DNA from: Escherichia coli
Lineage (GTDB): Bacteria > Pseudomonadota > Gammaproteobacteria > Enterobacterales > Enterobacteriaceae
Strand: one strand, 5' to 3'
DNA: 64,000 bases
Assembly (NCBI RefSeq): GCF_050320075.1
Contig: NZ_CP190021.1
The notes beneath the pieces are model-generated. The model did not search any database and was not told the DNA's origin. It worked only from the letters and a program-made list of their open reading frames with translations. How positions within the stretch are numbered: position 1 is the stretch's first letter; each line of letters opens with the position of its first letter. The position numbers and the translations under genes are program-made. Below are positions 3,751 to 10,154 of the stretch, in pieces.

Positions 3751-4211
3751 ACCAGGCATGTATATTTTACGCAGGGACACGCCGATCATGATCGTTTCAT
3801 ATCAGGGGTGGTCTGGAGGTCATGCGGCGTGTCCTCTGCACTCGCCGGAATAAGGAAGTCGCCGGCGGCTCCGCTTTTACCCGGCCATGCGGGGCATGGC
3901 CTTGTGGGGTTTCAGCTCTGTGGCCTCAGCGTCGTGTGCGGGCTGTGCCGTGCCTCCATCTTAGCCGGGCTGGCAGGGATGCAAGGGTACGCTTCGCCGC
4001 TGCGGTCACCCGGTCCCTCCTTCCCGTCTGCCGTGATTTTCCGGTCGTTCGTCCGCTCAGGTTTCGCGGCCTCACCCTGCAACTCCCGTCAGCCGTGTGC
4101 GTCAGGCTGCGGCTTCCCTTGCGCCCCTGCATCCCCGCCTTATCGCCCGGCTTTTATGGAGGCACGGCACCGCCCGGTGTCGCAGAACATGTGACTATGG
4201 AGGATTCGGGA

Positions 4212-4712
4212 ATGTCTGTTGTTGCACCTGCTGTATACGTTGGAACCTGGCACAAATACAACTGTGGAAGCATCGCCGGACGCTGGTTTGACCTGACCAC
4301 GTTTGATGATGAGCGCGACTTTTTCGCCGCCTGCCGTGCTCTTCACCAGGATGAAGCCGATCCTGAACTGATGTTTCAGGATTATGAGGGATTCCCGGGG
4401 AATATGGCCTCTGAATGCCATATCAACTGGGCCTGGGTTGAAGGCTTCCGCCTGGCACGGGATGAAGGCTGCGAAGAGGCTTATCGTCTCTGGGTGGAGG
4501 ATACCGGTGAGACGGATTTTGACACCTTCCGCGATGCCTGGTGGGGCGAGGCTGACAGTGAGGAGGCTTTTGCGGTTGAGTTCGCCAGTGATACCGGCCT
4601 GCTGGCTGACGTGCCGGAGACGGTGGCGCTCTATTTTGACTATGAGGCGTATGCGCGGGATTTATTCCTGGACTCCTTCACCTTTATTGACGGTCATGTG
4701 TTCCGTCGGTGA
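4212..4712 (+). CDS. ardA: antirestriction protein ArdA (166 aa, acidic DNA-mimic family)
   Basis: Start at ATG 4212 after GGAGGA RBS; sequence [36 protein letters not shown] and acidic composition match ArdA; the longer track ORF 3822-4712 is an Arg/Pro-rich artefact of the GC-rich leader. Confidence 0.85.
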
Positions 4713-5078
4713 TTTACTCCCCCGCTCCGGCGGGGGTATGGCCTGCCAGGCCGCCGGAAAACCCTGGCAGGCTTACGCCTGCCTGAAATGCAGGAGGGCC
4801 GCGCCTGCGGCGCTGCCCTTCCTGCCCGTCATGGTGTGAGGCATTTTTCTGTTATGTCGTTTCTGTTGTTCTGATTTCCGGAGGCGGGGACACCTTCGGC
4901 TCCCGGCTGCCTGGCGGCATCCGGTCGTCAGGCCCGACTCCGACAGGCAGCTGCTGGCGCACCCGCCAGTCTCCGCCGAACCCGCTGGCGCGGTTTCGGG
5001 CTGCCGCTACGGTCCGATGTCTGAAAAACCAGGCTTGCAGCGACCGTTCCGGTCGCGCCGCCCCTGTCGCGCCGGAAA

Positions 5079-5395
5079 CGGCGCTCCCTGCACACCTGAC
5101 GGTGTGTAAGGCCACTGCGCCTGATGGCGCAGTCAACCCTTCCGCCGCCACCCCTGCGGCCTGTTTCCCGCTGTGGACTTTCCGGGGGCTGGAGTAACCA
5201 CATCCCGTTTCAGCAGTCCAGGGGAAGATATACCGTCCACAAAATTTTTAGCCATAAACCCGGCAAAAAATTTTGCGTCCGCCCCCGGACAGCTGCCCCG
5301 TGACGTGGTGACGGACGCCCCATCGGAAAGGTCCACTGCGGGGAGAAACCCCGAAGAAGTGGACGGCAGAAGGGGCTTTCGCCCCTCCGGGGAGC
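5079..5395 (-). promoter_or_regulatory. conserved structured non-coding element, copy 1 (candidate single-strand promoter / ssi-type element of the transferred strand)
   Basis: About 320 bp that align at roughly 80 percent identity with 7957-8275; frameshifting indels between copies argue against coding; lies directly upstream of ORF 5441. Confidence 0.5.
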
Positions 5396-5440
5396 AACCG
5401 GTCGGCCCGGCGACCTGATTCAGCAGAAGGAGACGTTTTC

Positions 5441-5875
5441 ATGACAGTCAGCAGCACGATTTCCGTTTTTTGCCGCGACGGGGTGTTCCGTACCGTTTAC
5501 TGCCACCTGCACGGGGAGCCGACCTGGAACGGTCGCATCCTGCATACCCACTATGCCACCGGTCAGCAGGCCGAAGCCCTGGTTGAACACGGTGATATCC
5601 GTTGCCTCGGTCCCCGTTGCGACAAACCCGCCGGGCATACGCTTCAGAACCCGGTGGACGGTGTGACGGCTTATTACGGACGTGACAGTGGTTTCCGGAT
5701 GGACAGTGAGGCGCGTGAGTACCGTTCTTTCAGGGAGGCTATTGCCACTGAAAGCACTGAAGAGGTGCGCTTCCATTATGTGTTCATCGACGGCTACTGG
5801 AAGGTGATGTACCGCACGCCGGAAGGCTGGAAGATGAAAGCGCTCGCGCTGGCACTGCGTCGCTGTCCGAAATGA
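5441..5875 (+). CDS. hypothetical protein (144 aa), first gene downstream of conserved element copy 1
   Basis: ORF with AGGAGA RBS (aagGAGAcgttttcATG); Cys/His-containing, no recognisable family. Confidence 0.6.
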   Translation: MTVSSTISVFCRDGVFRTVYCHLHGEPTWNGRILHTHYATGQQAEALVEHGDIRCLGPRCDKPAGHTLQNPVDGVTAYYGRDSGFRMDSEAREYRSFREAIATESTEEVRFHYVFIDGYWKVMYRTPEGWKMKALALALRRCPK

Positions 5876-5968
5876 AAAAAAGGCAGGGCGATAAACCCTG
5901 CCTCTCTCCGCCGGCGCTTCCCCGCCAGGAAGTCCGGCATCTCAATCACTATCTATGGAGATTATGCC

Positions 5969-6235
5969 ATGAGACCATCAATTATCTTCGCAACCGCCGA
6001 GTATGTAAAGCGTCTGCGTGAAGAGTGCCTGCGGGAGAATAAACCCCTGCACCGCCATACCCGCTTCAGACGTCAGGAGCTGGCACAGGATGAGATTAAC
6101 CCGGACGTCCTGGCGATGAGCGGCCATATCGCCAGACGCTGCAGTGAGCAGAAGCGGGTGCGTATCCCCGCTATGAAAGTCAGCGAATGGGGCCACCTGC
6201 TCCGCGCGCTTGAAATTGAGCGGGTCTGCCACTGA
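5969..6235 (+). CDS. hypothetical small basic protein (88 aa)
   Basis: ORF with GGAG RBS 9 nt upstream; Arg-rich; co-oriented directly after ORF 5441. Confidence 0.45.
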   Translation: MRPSIIFATAEYVKRLREECLRENKPLHRHTRFRRQELAQDEINPDVLAMSGHIARRCSEQKRVRIPAMKVSEWGHLLRALEIERVCH

Positions 6236-6299
6236 TTAACCCTTGCCGTCTGCCTGTGCAGGCGGCAGGATACGTTCAGACATCTCACCAGGAGGAACC

Positions 6300-7238
6300 G
6301 TGAGTCAGAAGAAAACCACCACGACGCCCACGCCGCATGATGCCGCGTTCCGGTCGTTCCTGGCGAATCCCGACGTCGCCAGAGATTTTCTGGAACTGCA
6401 TCTTCCGGCGGAGTACCGGCAGTTGTGCGACCTGTCCACGCTGAAGCTGGAACCCGCCACCTTTGTTGAGCCGGACCTGCATCAGTACGCCAGCGATATC
6501 CTCTGGAGTGTGAAAACCACCGGGGGTGAAGATGGCTATGTTTATACGCTCATCGAGCACCAGAGCACCGAAAATCTGTACATGCCTTTCCGCATGTTAC
6601 GTTACAGTGTGGCGGCGATGCAGAGACATCTGGAGCAGCACAAAACGTTGCCACTGGTGATTCCTGTACTGTTCTATCATGGTGAGCGCAGCCCGTACCC
6701 GTACAGCATGAACTGGCTGGACTGTTTTGAGAATCCGGCACTTGCGGCTAAAATATACACAAAGCCGTTTCCGCTGGTTGATATCACTGTCGTTGATGAC
6801 AATGAAATCATGAACCATCGCCGGATGGCCGCACTGACGCTGCTGATGAAGCATATCCGCCATCGTGACATGATGGAGCTGCTGGACAAACTCCCGCAGG
6901 TCATGGTGGAAATTTCAGACGAGCAGGTGCGTGTTCTGATTCATTACATCGTTAACGCAGGGGACTCTGTATCACCGGAATTTATGCGGGCGCTGGCTGA
7001 GCGTCTGCCGCAGCATGAGGATAAACTGATGACTATCGCAGAACGTCTTGAGCAAAAAGGTCGCCAGGAGGGCAGGATGGAAGGACGCATGGAAGGACGC
7101 ATGGAAGGACGCATGGAAGGAGCGCTTGAAAAAGCCCTGGCTATTGCGTGCCAGCTTCAGAAAATGGGGATGACGCCGGAGCAGATTAAGCAGGCTACCG
7201 GACTTTCCGATGACGAACTGAAGAAAATCACTCACTGA
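6300..7238 (+). CDS. Rpn-family (YhgA-like, PD-(D/E)XK) recombination-promoting nuclease / putative transposase
   Basis: GTG start after AGGAGG RBS; N-terminal HDAAFRSFL..ARDFL and core motifs typical of Rpn/YhgA proteins; C-terminal tail domain after a GRME tandem repeat. Confidence 0.8.
   Translation: MSQKKTTTTPTPHDAAFRSFLANPDVARDFLELHLPAEYRQLCDLSTLKLEPATFVEPDLHQYASDILWSVKTTGGEDGYVYTLIEHQSTENLYMPFRMLRYSVAAMQRHLEQHKTLPLVIPVLFYHGERSPYPYSMNWLDCFENPALAAKIYTKPFPLVDITVVDDNEIMNHRRMAALTLLMKHIRHRDMMELLDKLPQVMVEISDEQVRVLIHYIVNAGDSVSPEFMRALAERLPQHEDKLMTIAERLEQKGRQEGRMEGRMEGRMEGRMEGALEKALAIACQLQKMGMTPEQIKQATGLSDDELKKITH
7071..7118 (+). repeat. in-frame 12-bp tandem repeat x4 (ggacgcatggaa) encoding (GRME)4 in the Rpn linker
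   Basis: Three perfect units plus one imperfect unit read directly from sequence. Confidence 0.9.
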
Positions 7239-7249
7239 GTAAACATCAC

Positions 7250-7276
7250 AGCCCGGCAAAATGCCGGGCTTTTTTG
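7250..7276 (+). terminator. Rho-independent terminator after the Rpn gene
   Basis: Hairpin agcccggc-aaaat-gccgggct followed by a T-run. Confidence 0.7.
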
Positions 7277-7299
7277 TCAGCAGGAGCAGAGCAAATAGC

Positions 7300-7458
7300 A
7301 TGACGATTGCAGAACGTCTTATTCAAAAAGGCGCACTTGAAGTGGCGCGGGAAATAGCCTGCCGGCTGCGGGATATGGGCTGGACGCCGGAACGGATTCA
7401 GGAGGCAACCGGACTTTCCGGTGAAGAACTGAAAAAGCTGTTTCCTGATGAGCAGTAG
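7300..7458 (+). CDS. free-standing Rpn C-terminal tail-like small protein (52 aa)
   Basis: MTIAERLIQKG..GWTPERIQEATGLSGEELKKL parallels the Rpn tail MTIAERLEQKG..GMTPEQIKQATGLSDDELKKI; GGAG RBS upstream. Confidence 0.6.
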   Translation: MTIAERLIQKGALEVAREIACRLRDMGWTPERIQEATGLSGEELKKLFPDEQ

Positions 7459-7488
7459 CCTGGCATTCAGCCAGGCTGTGAATCACGC

Positions 7489-7740
7489 TCACACATCCTC
7501 TGCCGTTTCCCCCAGTTCATTTTCCAGTCGCCTGATGATATCTGCCTTACGCATCCCCTGCATGTGAGGCAGCAGGTCACGGACTGAAAGTGCCTGGGTG
7601 GTCCTCCAGACGGTGACGTCCACCTGTTCCGCATTTTCCCAGGCGTGCCATGTTCTCTGCGTCACGCCAAATTCTCTGGCCGCTTTTTCGCGTGACCAGA
7701 GCATGCTTTTTCGCCAGATTCGCAGTTCCCAGCCGGTCAT
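7489..7740 (-). CDS. small HTH DNA-binding regulator (83 aa)
   Basis: HTH-like segment REKAAREFGVTQRTWHAWE; promoter region carries twin palindromes. Confidence 0.6.
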   Translation of the reverse strand: MTGWELRIWRKSMLWSREKAAREFGVTQRTWHAWENAEQVDVTVWRTTQALSVRDLLPHMQGMRKADIIRRLENELGETAEDV

Positions 7741-7754
7741 AAAACACCTTTGAA

Positions 7755-7775
7755 AAAGTGAAAAAACTTCACTTT
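7755..7775. promoter_or_regulatory. palindromic operator-like site AAAGTGAA-N5-TTCACTTT (copy 1)
   Basis: Perfect 8-5-8 inverted repeat just upstream of the HTH gene start. Confidence 0.6.
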
Positions 7776-7821
7776 ATTTTATCATCACAATTGCCAAATC
7801 AGCGCGATAAATAAGTGTAAA

Positions 7822-7842
7822 AAAGTGAAGAAATTTCACTTT
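7822..7842. promoter_or_regulatory. palindromic operator-like site AAAGTGAA-N5-TTCACTTT (copy 2)
   Basis: Second identical 8-5-8 inverted repeat 67 bp from copy 1. Confidence 0.6.
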
Positions 7843-7956
7843 TTTTGCTTGTAAATGTCGTGCGGTTTTCTCTGTTTTCACCTGTGCGGGAGTGGTGTGC
7901 CAGTGACCACCACATGCCATTGTTGTGCCGTCGTTTTTCTTCAGTCGCGCCGTATG

Positions 7957-8275
7957 CGGCGCTCCCTGCACACCTTACGGTGTGTAAGGCCACTGCGCCT
8001 GATGGCGCAGCTGTCTCTGCCTGTCTGCCGCCGCACTGCGGCCTGTTCTCCGCAGACGGACTTTCCGGGGGTACATACATGACCACATCCCGTTTCAGTC
8101 GTCCAGGGGGGAGATGTACCAGCCACAAAACTTTTTGCCGCAGGCGTCAAAAACTTTTGCGTCTGCCCCCGGACAACTGCCCCGTGACGTGGTGAGCGTC
8201 CCCCGTCGGAAAGGTCCACTGCGGGGAAATCCCCGAAGACCCGGACGGCAGAAGGAGCTTCGCTCCTCCGGGAAA
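7957..8275 (-). promoter_or_regulatory. conserved structured non-coding element, copy 2
   Basis: Homologous to 5079-5395; directly upstream of ORF 8317. Confidence 0.5.
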
Positions 8276-8316
8276 TGACCTGGCTGTCCCGGCAGTCGTG
8301 ACGATGAGGAGACAAT

Positions 8317-9168
8317 GTGATGAATCAGACTTTACCCACTGCTGACCTGAATACTGCCGGCACGACAGATGTTATTCCGTCTGTGGCTATCGACCGCATC
8401 ATCGCGCAGCGTAACGAAGGTATTGCACTGTTCATGCAGGCGATGGAATGCCTGGCGACAGCGCGCAAGATTCTGCTCGATGCGTCAGGTGATATTTTTC
8501 TTTACGGGTTTGAAGACTGCGTGACTGATTCCGTTCGTCGCATAGATAAACCGGAAGAAGCGAAAAGGAATATCACCCGTCTTGCCGACCGGAAAATCTG
8601 GGACCGCCTGATGACAGATACGGGCATGTACACCTTCATGAGTTCATGCCAGCGTGATGAGTGGAACAGCCAGCTGATGAGCGACACCTGTCCTGAAATC
8701 ACCCTGGACAATGTACTGGCAACATTCCGCCATCTGAATGCCTGCAAGATGCAGACATTTGAACAGGGACTGATTGATGTCTACCGGAAATTGTCATGGG
8801 ATTACAGAACCAATAATCCCTGCCGTCTGGGTAAGAAAATCATTATTGAAAACCTGCTGTACCGCTGGAGTAACGGGCGTGTGACGCTGGACTGCAGCGG
8901 ACGGGAGGCACTGGATGACCTGGTACGTCCGTTTTATCTGCTGGAGGGGCGCAACGTTCCTGACTTCAGGAACAGTATCGGGGCGCAGTATGGTGAATTT
9001 CTCGGGAACGGCGACAATGTCGGTAAGCTGTTAGAAGGGGAATATTTTACGGTGCGTGGCTACCAGAAAGGGACCGTACACATTGTCTTTAAGCGTTCTG
9101 ACCTTGTTGAAAAACTGAATGATATTATTGCACGGCATTATCCAGGTGCATTGCCGCCACGAGTCTGA
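8317..9168 (+). CDS. hypothetical protein (283 aa), last + strand gene of the leading region before oriT
   Basis: ORF with AGGAGA RBS; adjacent GTG and ATG candidate starts at 8317 and 8320; no confidently recognised domain. Confidence 0.6.
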   Translation: MMNQTLPTADLNTAGTTDVIPSVAIDRIIAQRNEGIALFMQAMECLATARKILLDASGDIFLYGFEDCVTDSVRRIDKPEEAKRNITRLADRKIWDRLMTDTGMYTFMSSCQRDEWNSQLMSDTCPEITLDNVLATFRHLNACKMQTFEQGLIDVYRKLSWDYRTNNPCRLGKKIIIENLLYRWSNGRVTLDCSGREALDDLVRPFYLLEGRNVPDFRNSIGAQYGEFLGNGDNVGKLLEGEYFTVRGYQKGTVHIVFKRSDLVEKLNDIIARHYPGALPPRV

Positions 9169-9180
9169 TTAAACAGAAAA

Positions 9181-9210
9181 GCCCTGGTATTTATGCCGGG
9201 GCTTTTTTTT
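9181..9210 (+). terminator. Rho-independent terminator after ORF 8317
   Basis: Hairpin gccctgg-tatttat-gccggggc followed by T8. Confidence 0.7.
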
Positions 9211-9253
9211 CTGTAATCATCATAATCTCAGAACACGATGTGACATTGTCACA

Positions 9254-9595
9254 TCAATTGTTGTTCATATCGATGCCATCTTTCCTGCCTGAATCTGTCT
9301 TTTTAGGTGCTGTTTTAGAGGAAGAACGGCGGGATGGTTTTTTCGATTCTGCTTCCCGAATAATGTCACGAAGTGCCTTCTCTCCTACTTCATACCCTGC
9401 ATTTTTGAGCGTGTCACGAACATCTGCCAGTGTATAACCCTTTGTCCTTACCAGGACAATAATGTCATCACGAATGGCATCAAGAAAATCACGCAATGTT
9501 TTCCGTTGAGCGGTGAGATCTGGCAATTCCGATAAAGCAGCTTTTGCCAGCTGGATGTCATCATCTGAGTAAAATTTTTTAGAAGCCATTGGCAC
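9254..9595 (-). CDS. hypothetical protein with Lys/Arg/Ser-rich basic C-terminal tail (113 aa), possible DNA-binding protein, directly beside oriT
   Basis: ORF on the opposite strand to the other leading-region genes; basic tail ESKKPSRRSSSKTAPKKTDSGRK. Confidence 0.5.
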   Translation of the reverse strand: MPMASKKFYSDDDIQLAKAALSELPDLTAQRKTLRDFLDAIRDDIIVLVRTKGYTLADVRDTLKNAGYEVGEKALRDIIREAESKKPSRRSSSKTAPKKTDSGRKDGIDMNNN

Positions 9596-9647
9596 TTTCT
9601 CTCCGTTTCATGTTGAAGTCTGATTTTATCATCAAAAACTGACTCCT

Positions 9648-9776
9648 GGCAGGGCTGCGCCCTGCCTCTGCCGTCTGCATAAGACTATGATGCACAAAAA
9701 TAACAGGCTATAATGGCCTGAAAAACGGGACAGGATGTGCAATTGTATAACCGCGCACGCGCGATTATACAATTGC
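9648..9776. promoter_or_regulatory. oriT: origin of transfer (oriT) with predicted nick site on the - strand
   Basis: Inverted repeat ggcagggc-tgc-gccctgcc (9648-9666); 12-bp inverted-repeat arms gcaattgtataa/ttatacaattgc (9739-9776); minus-strand core CATCCTG/TCCCG resembling IncP/IncI nick regions, placing the nick near 9730/9731. Confidence 0.7.
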
Positions 9777-9821
9777 CTCCTGGTCAGGGCTTCGCCCCGA
9801 CACCCCAGTAAGGAGCTGACC

Positions 9822-10154
9822 GTGAGTGATAAACGTCAAAGAAGTGGTAGTGAAAGACGGCAAAAGACGATCCTGAGAGCGGTCCGGTTCTCACCGGATG
9901 AGGATGAAACTATCTGTAAGAATGCTGAAGATTCCGGACTTACTGTATCTGCTTACATCCGAAATGCAGCACTGAATAAGCGAATTAACTCCCGTACAGA
10001 TGATGCTTTTCTGAAGGAGTTAATGAGACTGGGAAGGATGCAGAAGCATCTGTTTGTTCAGGGAAAAAGAACCGGTGACAAGGAATACGCAGAAGTGCTT
10101 GTTGCCATAACCGAACTTACAAATACATTGCGTAAACAGTTAATGGAAGGTTGA
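9822..10154 (+). CDS. nikA: relaxosome accessory protein NikA (ribbon-helix-helix, 110 aa)
   Basis: GTG start after AAGGAG RBS, next to oriT and upstream of the relaxase; expected size. Confidence 0.8.
   Translation: MSDKRQRSGSERRQKTILRAVRFSPDEDETICKNAEDSGLTVSAYIRNAALNKRINSRTDDAFLKELMRLGRMQKHLFVQGKRTGDKEYAEVLVAITELTNTLRKQLMEG

Follow-up and report, generated by a model that had tools for sequence, protein, structure and literature searches.

Rpn proteins form toxin–antitoxin systems in which the full-length product, RpnL, is a toxic DNA endonuclease and its antitoxin, RpnS, is made from an internal in-frame start of the same gene (Zhong et al., 2023, PNAS 120:e2307382120, PMC10400941). The RpnS protein of RpnA (RpnA-S) is a dimeric three-helix bundle in which the first helix is the dimer interface. 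Hypervariable four-residue repeats begin 8–20 residues past the RpnS methionine, in this first helix, and their number sets antitoxin specificity; in the case of RpnC, one extra repeat on either partner abolishes neutralization, and one extra repeat on both restores it (PMC10400941). The same authors compared these repeats with the TAEL repeats in HsdS of EcoR124I and EcoR124II, which are also in-frame four-residue helix repeats with a copy number that determines specificity. However, the HsdS repeat sets the spacing of the DNA recognition domains, whereas the Rpn repeat sets the pairing of the toxin and antitoxin proteins. In the present work, an rpn gene and the small open reading frame (ORF) that follows it, at positions 6300–7458 of a 64,000-nucleotide stretch of Escherichia coli DNA (RefSeq assembly GCF_050320075.1, contig NZ_CP190021.1; the whole stretch is referred to as the window), are compared with these systems.

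Separate downstream RpnS genes, known as RpnSs, have been described on chromosomes and plasmids; among them is YpaA, which is encoded 3' of rpnE and is expressed in E. coli K-12. Such genes can disappear or become fused to the N-terminal domain (PMC10400941). RpnSs copies in general have no published function. Among the published proteins, RpnP2 from a plasmid of ECOR13 protects against T-even phages by lowering their plaquing; its RpnL was shown to be toxic, to induce the SOS response and to be neutralized by the cognate RpnS, and its protection is mostly gone in an active-site mutant (D14A, D66A, E86A, Q88K; gBlock AO730; PMC10400941).

In this study, the homology, catalytic residues, internal-start sequence, repeat series, mosaic structure, purifying selection and, as a model, protein fold at the window locus were analyzed. 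The sample comprised 39 loci: the window, 17 loci picked at even intervals from the ranked results of a search of plasmids, one exact match and 20 further loci taken from contigs that encode four alleles of the small ORF. The locus is probably an RpnL/RpnS gene-within-a-gene toxin–antitoxin antiphage module, an allele of rpnP2, and the ORF downstream is probably a non-cognate paralogue of the RpnSs type. The elements concerned are the following.

6300–7238, + strand: rpnL, predicted full-length Rpn nuclease (toxin) of 312 aa, an rpnP2 allele with another C-terminal module (from PF04754, TIGR01784, identity to RpnP2 and active-site residues).
7017–7238, + strand: internal translation start and in-frame 69-aa RpnS (Met244 to His312), predicted cognate antitoxin (from sequence).
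7059–7121, + strand: repeat array GRQE + (GRME)x4 in helix 1 of the tail (from Tandem Repeats Finder and an allelic series of 0–5 units).
7250–7278, + strand: intrinsic-terminator-like hairpin and T-run between rpn and the small ORF (from a scan, an RNA fold and an alignment of leaders).
7300–7458, + strand: free-standing RpnS-like gene (RpnSs type) of 52 aa, with zero repeats here (from tail homology, fold and the ratio of nonsynonymous to synonymous differences, pN/pS).

The rpn ORF runs from a GTG at 6300 to a stop at 7238. The Pfam family Transposase_31/YhgA-like (PF04754) covers residues 11–207 (E=2.4e-78) and the NCBIfam Rpn family TIGR01784 scores 180 bits against a cut-off of 52.1, which bears out the Rpn/YhgA-like gene that a first-pass annotation of this DNA had placed at 6300. 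The C-terminal helical tail aligns with positions 244–291 of the RpnA profile, and PF27070 (HTH_Rpn_C) is annotated on Rpn proteins from sister loci. The four positions altered in the RpnP2 active-site mutant, D14, D66, E86 and Q88, are all retained, so that the nuclease catalytic residues, left in question by the first-pass annotation, are present. These features support the assignment of the window protein as a putative Rpn-family nuclease of the PD-(D/E)XK type. It scores 318 bits against a cut-off of 583 for the RpnA equivalog and hence is not an RpnA orthologue. A sequence search of the full-length protein against the PDB gave no relevant structure, whereas the tail alone has one, and the comparison of Rpn and the small ORF with PADLOC-DB v2 gave zero model matches, hence no independent defense call from that source. 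A reading of Rpn as a transposase or an insertion sequence was considered and set aside, since the gene occupies a single fixed site in all of the plasmids sampled and Zhong et al. found no terminal repeats or target duplications (PMC10400941).

The comparison with RpnP2 places the gene more precisely. Over 399 nt of gBlock AO591 of RpnP2, with the sequence taken from the oligonucleotide table of the preprint of Zhong et al., window positions 6000–6398 differ at three positions, all of which are in the gene, and the upstream 300 bp (6000–6299) are identical. All four RpnP2-specific primers match locus L017 (CP098934.1), and the DNA identity between the window and this locus is 97–100% over 6100–6800, 54–63% over about 6850–7300 and 99–100% again from 7400. 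At the protein level, the window Rpn and the RpnP2-type allele are 99% identical over residues 1–180, 50% over residues 181–243 and 51% over the tail (residues 244–312). Because the upstream 300 bp are identical, the core is 99% identical and the identity breaks between core and tail, the window gene can be taken as an allele of the rpnP2 locus, that is, by sequence, the rpnP2 nuclease core with another C-terminal module attached to it. The RpnP2-type locus also has the same GF-type small ORF downstream and the same ygeA and DUF4942 neighbors. The difference lies in the last 130 or so residues, which are about 50% identical, and in the repeat units, which are GIQQ or GVQQ in RpnP2 compared with GRQE and GRME in the window; as a consequence of the different module, phage specificity and antitoxin cross-reactivity may differ. 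Systems of this type, including the repeats and the free-standing copies, were described in 2023, and the window locus is, on these alignments, a sister allele of the published RpnP2. The view of the first-pass annotation that an Rpn/tail pair in a plasmid leading region was uncharacterized does not hold, since RpnP2 of the ECOR13 plasmid is the same locus and was tested experimentally. Toxicity, neutralization by RpnS, repeat-number dependence and phage defense are carried over here from the published sister alleles: because the nuclease core is 99% identical to that of RpnP2, the window allele would be expected to be toxic, to be neutralized by its own RpnS and to act against phages in the same way.

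The predicted antitoxin is encoded within rpn itself. A GAGGA at 7017–7021 is followed, after a 7-nt spacer, by an ATG at 7029, which is Met244 as read from the sequence; RpnP2 likewise has an internal GAGGA–ATG start before its tail. Met244 is the first residue of the homology to the small ORF, to RpnA-S (PDB entry 7TH0) and to positions 244–288 of the RpnA profile, and the mapped internal start of RpnA is likewise M244 (PMC10400941). RpnA resembles the window Rpn in this start and in the three-helix bundle with a long first helix, but is chromosomal, and its K-12 allele is without repeat units. The sister allele has been found to produce RpnP2-S protein (PMC10400941). The internal start at 7029 is therefore likely to be the source of the cognate antitoxin. 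The first-pass annotation was right in that small tail proteins act as Rpn antitoxins in the published systems; however, there they are made from an internal start, and the one at 7029 had been overlooked. Internal transcription start sites have been reported in E. coli K-12 rpn genes (PMC10400941), and a consensus scan gave one candidate in the window.

6727–6754, + strand: promoter-like site inside rpn (TTGAGA-16-TAAAAT, 10/12 consensus match), candidate internal promoter for a short RpnS transcript (from the consensus scan only).

The repeat at the start of the tail comprises (GRME)x4, residues 258–273 (7071–7118), preceded immediately by the diverged unit GRQE (7059–7070). Tandem Repeats Finder reports a period of 12, 3.8 copies and 100% matches at 7077–7121, so that the in-frame 12-bp repeat noted earlier at 7071–7118 is confirmed and is far beyond chance. 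The array begins at RpnS residue 11, 11 residues past Met244, within the published range of 8–20, and each unit has one hydrophobic residue and three charged residues or glycines, as in the published Rpn repeats; RpnP2 also carries its four-residue repeat in helix 1. The earlier description of the array as a linker ahead of the tail is thus replaced: it starts inside tail helix 1 and, by analogy with RpnA-S, the repeat would belong to the antitoxin–toxin interface helix. The expectation that slippage alters length without breaking the frame was borne out by the comparison of copy number among related plasmids. The window-type (GR-type) tail, parsed as KG[RQEG][RMEG]n, has 0, 1, 2, 3, 4 or 5 units among the loci sampled, with GRME units numbering 0 to 4, and the RpnP2-type tail has 3, 4, 5 or 9 GIQQ-like units. 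Furthermore, one identical small-ORF allele adjoins Rpn genes with 1, 4 or 5 units (loci L032–L037), which indicates that the array changes on a very short timescale and always in frame.

From these data and the published work, the following mechanism can be proposed. The full-length product of 6300–7238 would be a DNA endonuclease of the PD-(D/E)XK type that is toxic alone. The 69-aa RpnS translated from 7029 would share its three-helix tail, bind the tail of RpnL via the long first helix and hold the nuclease in an inactive state, from which RpnL would be released by phage infection or some other trigger. Slippage of the 12-bp repeat would lengthen or shorten the first helix in the toxin and antitoxin together and, since both partners are altered at once, a new specificity class could arise with the pair unbroken. 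The 52-aa ORF would be a free-standing RpnS paralogue of the RpnSs type with an array that slips independently.

The relationship of the 52-aa ORF (ATG at 7300, stop at 7458) to the Rpn tail, which had been described as that of a diverged copy, was upheld by alignment: BLASTP against Rpn residues 244–310 gave 33/67 identities (49%; E=3e-15), and the sole gap, of 20 residues, falls exactly over the Rpn repeat. The ORF matches 7TH0 with E=0.015 by sequence and 1.4e-7 by profile, and it also matches positions 244–288 of the NCBIfam RpnA profile. An AlphaFold2 model (predicted local distance difference test score of 79) has helices at residues 3–25, 30–37 and 41–47, and its top Foldseek match is again 7TH0 (template-modeling scores of 0.77/0.86, root-mean-square deviation of 1.0 Å, 48% identity). 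A Pfam-A scan of the small ORF gave only sub-threshold matches of the helix–turn–helix (HTH) type with a Pfam version that does not include PF27070; this family is annotated on several homologues, and some recent RefSeq records name the ORF 'RpnC/YadD family protein'. By sequence and by modeled fold, the small ORF is an RpnS-type protein.

It is also a real coding gene under purifying selection. The GF-type ORF is intact in 38 of the 39 loci at about 10% synonymous divergence. Over the non-repeat codons pS is 0.10 and pN is 0.028, giving a pN/pS of 0.27 compared with 0.81 and 2.22 in the two shifted frames; the corresponding values are 0.08 for Rpn residues 1–180, 0.12 for ygeA and 0.11 for the window-type tail. 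The ORF has a repeat array of its own, with GFDE, GFKE, GFKQ or GFEK units numbering from 0 to 6 and all changes in frame, and the window form has zero. A variant from Salmonella enterica (P0001, 79 aa) has, at a later position in the protein, another tandem repeat that keeps the frame, REIACRL x3 (21 bp), so slippage is not confined to the four-residue array. DNA of the small ORF is present in 1340 of 5426 complete E. coli genomes, with 2614 of 2644 places on plasmids.

Its expression signals are less clear. A hairpin at 7250–7270 with nine pairs, seven of them G–C, is followed by a T-run. The ribosome-binding site credited to the ORF by the first-pass annotation exists, as an AGGAG at 7282–7286, but its distance of 13 nt from the ATG is long for Shine–Dalgarno spacing and makes the site only partly convincing. 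As a promoter for the small ORF, the sole match (7274–7301) would start transcription past the ATG and was rejected. In an RNA fold, a short stem at 7274–7306, just past the terminator hairpin, pairs UGUCAGCA (7274–7281) with the region of the start codon, and this stem might limit translation of the small ORF.

The published RpnSs copies offer the nearest comparison for this ORF. YpaA (RpnE-Ss) and RpnC-Ss are similarly small genes just 3' of rpn that copy its tail and have variable four-residue repeats. However, RpnC-Ss and RpnE-Ss each group with the tail of the rpn gene upstream of them, a sign of recent local duplication, whereas the window ORF is 49% identical to its neighbor's tail and is constant across two classes of Rpn tail; clustering with its own upstream rpn tail was found only in locus L016. 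In addition, its tail type was not found attached to a nuclease in the protein collections searched. A search of 5.8 billion proteins gave no full-length Rpn with a GF/ALEVAREIA tail, the best 120 of 321 matches all being 89 aa or shorter, and among 41 matches in 1.84 billion representatives at 50% identity only partial GR-type Rpn fragments carry the Rpn N-terminal part. Nor was a GF-type ORF fused to the Rpn N-terminal part seen among the loci sampled.

The plasmid setting bears on how these genes might be expressed. The 1.9-kb region matches 2040 of the 72,556 plasmids in PLSDB, of which 1903 are conjugative, mostly in Escherichia and Salmonella; the matching plasmids are typed as IncI1, IncI-gamma/K1 or B/O with MOBP/MPF_I. 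The genes lie in the order ssb, DUF905, ParB-like, psiB, psiA, ardA, orf144, orf88, rpn, small ORF, ygeA (named in the style of R64; opposite strand), DUF4942, mobC, nikA and nikB. The locus is the leading region of IncI1-type plasmids, with genes oriented towards oriT, as the first-pass annotation had proposed. The rpn cluster is located between oriT/nikAB and ssb/psiB, co-oriented and downstream of a hairpin of the ssi/Frpo type, and a second such element stands at the end of the cluster.

4990–5430, − strand: ssi/Frpo-like long hairpin, candidate single-strand promoter upstream of orf144, orf88, rpn and the small ORF (from a DNA fold and repeat copies).
7870–8310, − strand: second ssi/Frpo-like element, upstream of the DUF4942 gene (8317–9168), at the end of the rpn cluster (from 82% identity to the first).

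Folded as single-stranded DNA, the element of about 330 nt at 4990–5430 has an energy of -128.7 kcal/mol (z=-6.9 versus shuffles), and its template (transferred) strand would be the − strand. A 34-nt core of the ssi-like element occurs twice in the window and exactly three times in pESBL-EA11, which is syntenic with the window: before ssb, before the orf144–rpn cluster and before DUF4942. In pESBL, six leading-region operons are induced zygotically, each preceded by a hairpin for which a start site was mapped; ssi1–3, class-1 single-stranded DNA promoters, account for three of these hairpins (PMC12672017, 2025). Because the three copies of the core in pESBL-EA11 fit ssi1–3, the rpn cluster very likely lies behind one of these promoters. 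An Rfam scan of window positions 4000–10000 gave nothing at E<=0.1. Neither Zhong et al. (PMC10400941) nor the leading-region papers, including PMC11541004, draw a link between Rpn and the leading region.

The role of the small ORF can now be weighed. The first-pass annotation had taken it as the antitoxin of the adjacent full-length Rpn in a conventional two-gene toxin–antitoxin pair. Its homology to RpnS antitoxins and RpnA-S-like modeled fold, the expression of the downstream copy YpaA in K-12, its constant position beside rpn under purifying selection and the case of L016, where the free copy is nearly identical to the neighbor's tail, would all suit such a role. However, the start inside rpn would already provide a perfectly matched RpnS, and the window Rpn tail carries five repeat units against zero in the small ORF. 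The two counts are equal in only two of the 37 loci compared and differ in 35, with 17 combinations among the 28 GR-type loci, whereas a mismatch of one repeat abolished neutralization in the published work. No correlation of the counts was found across the 28 GR-type loci (rho -0.21, p 0.29); a negative correlation in the first 14 loci (rho -0.68) was gone once all 28 had been parsed and was rejected as an artefact of incomplete parsing. The small ORF also does not co-vary with the Rpn tail class: it lies on a flank that is 97–100% conserved and is essentially the same gene beside GR-type and GIQQ-type tails, whereas the Rpn C-terminal module falls to 54–63% DNA identity between the allele classes. 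Furthermore, the published RpnP2 construct ended 101 bp past the rpn stop, with about 13 codons of the small ORF (primer AO619 lies in approximately codons 7–13), and was nevertheless non-toxic, gave abundant RpnP2-S and protected against phages (PMC10400941). In one locus (L013, NZ_CP024231.1, 241–1472) rpn is frameshifted in the tail and is without a gene annotation, yet the small ORF is intact, with six repeats, the largest array seen. Because the counts are unmatched, the ORF does not follow the Rpn tail class and the RpnP2 construct dispensed with it, we infer that it is probably non-cognate; it is most likely not the antitoxin of the neighboring RpnL, and the two-gene pair is quite unlikely.

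If the small ORF is not the cognate antitoxin, it could be a functionless relic of tail duplication that is kept by lying between selected genes. Its place behind a terminator, the long Shine–Dalgarno spacing, the possible stem at its start codon, its dispensability for RpnP2 function and a pN/pS above those of Rpn residues 1–180, ygeA and the GR tail would fit this explanation, but the near-universal integrity of the ORF despite its synonymous divergence, the strictly in-frame changes across 0–6 units and the frame-specific synonymous excess make a relic very unlikely. Another explanation is an orphan anti-Rpn factor, either a decoy antitoxin against the Rpn nucleases of recipients or competitors or a protein that titrates RpnS and so adjusts activation; it would be supplied soon after conjugation by expression from the single-strand promoter. 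The rpn cluster is directly behind one of three ssi-type elements, which in the syntenic pESBL precede zygotically induced operons, and leading regions are enriched in orphan antitoxins (PMC11541004); the ORF remains conserved whatever the neighboring tail, has a rapidly changing array of its own and is about equally near to chromosomal RpnA-S (48%) and to its neighbor's tail (49%). Against this stand the lack of full-length Rpn proteins with its tail type in the two protein searches described above, the location of only 30 of the 2644 places on chromosomes and the terminator between the small ORF and the upstream genes, and such a factor seems highly improbable. A broader proposal, that the GF-type ORF is a third, independently evolving component rather than a spare antitoxin, an Rpn-tail protein that exists solely in free-standing form and is made from an ssi-driven early operon after entry and either disarming foreign Rpn or titrating RpnS to set the firing threshold, is speculative and on balance unlikely; if it were true, the private repeat array of the ORF would be a second specificity dial in plasmid–plasmid or plasmid–host conflict.

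The favored interpretation, an rpnP2-type RpnL/RpnS module followed by a non-cognate RpnSs paralogue, has points that weigh against it. The window tail is only 51% identical to that of RpnP2, and toxicity, neutralization and phage range are extrapolated across this difference. The candidate internal promoter of rpn rests on a consensus match. The repeat-number rule was shown for RpnC and for one unit, and it may fail for a paralogue with GFxE rather than GRME units. The conserved ends of the tail (MTIAERL.QKG and GLS..ELKK) might still be enough for binding of the small ORF to RpnL or RpnS. That the ORF is under purifying selection implies some role, which this interpretation does not supply, and expression of the ORF may be poor behind a strong terminator, with a 13-nt Shine–Dalgarno spacing and a possibly paired start codon.

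The arrangement of the tails in other loci suggests how the window architecture could have arisen. Every tail, whether intragenic or free, begins with the conserved 21-nt start block ATGACnATnGCAGAACGTCTT, and in an alignment of leaders each free-standing tail is preceded by the hairpin CCCGGCAAAATGCCGGG and the leader CAGCAGGAGCAGAGCAAAyAGy. Three tails stand in series in L014 (NZ_CP080261.1, 1–1464), namely a window-type N-terminal part with a GIQQx9 tail, a free window-type tail and a GF-type ORF; in L031 (378–1795) an RpnP2-type gene is followed by the same free window-type tail and a GF-type ORF. This indicates that tail cassettes, each consisting of hairpin, leader and tail ORF, have probably been stacked and fused by recombination at the start block. 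In L014, deletion from one conserved start block to another would yield the window architecture, a route that agrees with the loss of RpnSs genes, or their fusion to the N-terminal domain, reported by Zhong et al. (PMC10400941).

The remaining genes of the cluster and its surroundings are as follows.

5441–5875, + strand: orf144, first gene of the cluster (from the ORF list; PHROG 1987, unknown function, E=5e-21; syntenic in all plasmids examined).
5969–6235, + strand: orf88, second gene of the cluster (from the ORF list).
7489–7740, − strand: ygeA-type XRE/HTH gene, convergent with the small ORF (from the ORF list; annotated in all related plasmids; pN/pS 0.12).

The 3' part of orf88 and the spacer to rpn lie in the 300 bp that the RpnP2 study took as the native promoter region. 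Compared with window positions 6000–6299, the sequence upstream of rpn is unrelated (27–37% identity) in L008, L010, L018, L024–L027 and pESBL-EA11 (66517–66906), and these alleles contain an additional ORF of 129 aa, annotated as ccgAII or, wrongly, as CbiX, with a stop that overlaps the rpn start by 4 nt; owing to the differing upstream modules, the native promoter region of rpn varies between plasmids. Only 30 nt separate the stop codons of ygeA and the small ORF. All of the loci sampled have ygeA, and transcription from it may continue in antisense across the small ORF up to the hairpin at 7250–7270. The DUF4942 protein (8317–9168), behind the second ssi element, matches phrog_6263 (DNA methyltransferase; E=5e-17) and may be a methylase-like protein that is expressed early.

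This analysis serves mainly to correct the earlier view: the feature exists as described, but the system was published in 2023, and the RpnP2 tested there is the same locus. In IncI1-type plasmids, a single nuclease core is found with at least two C-terminal modules that can replace each other, in addition to stacked cassettes; these plasmids thus provide a natural allelic series in which tail type and repeat number can be related to specificity and phage range. The small ORF, which is selected, widespread and apparently non-cognate, is a second point of interest. Finally, the cluster that contains this predicted toxic nuclease module lies behind a candidate single-strand promoter element, and the module might therefore be expressed at plasmid entry.

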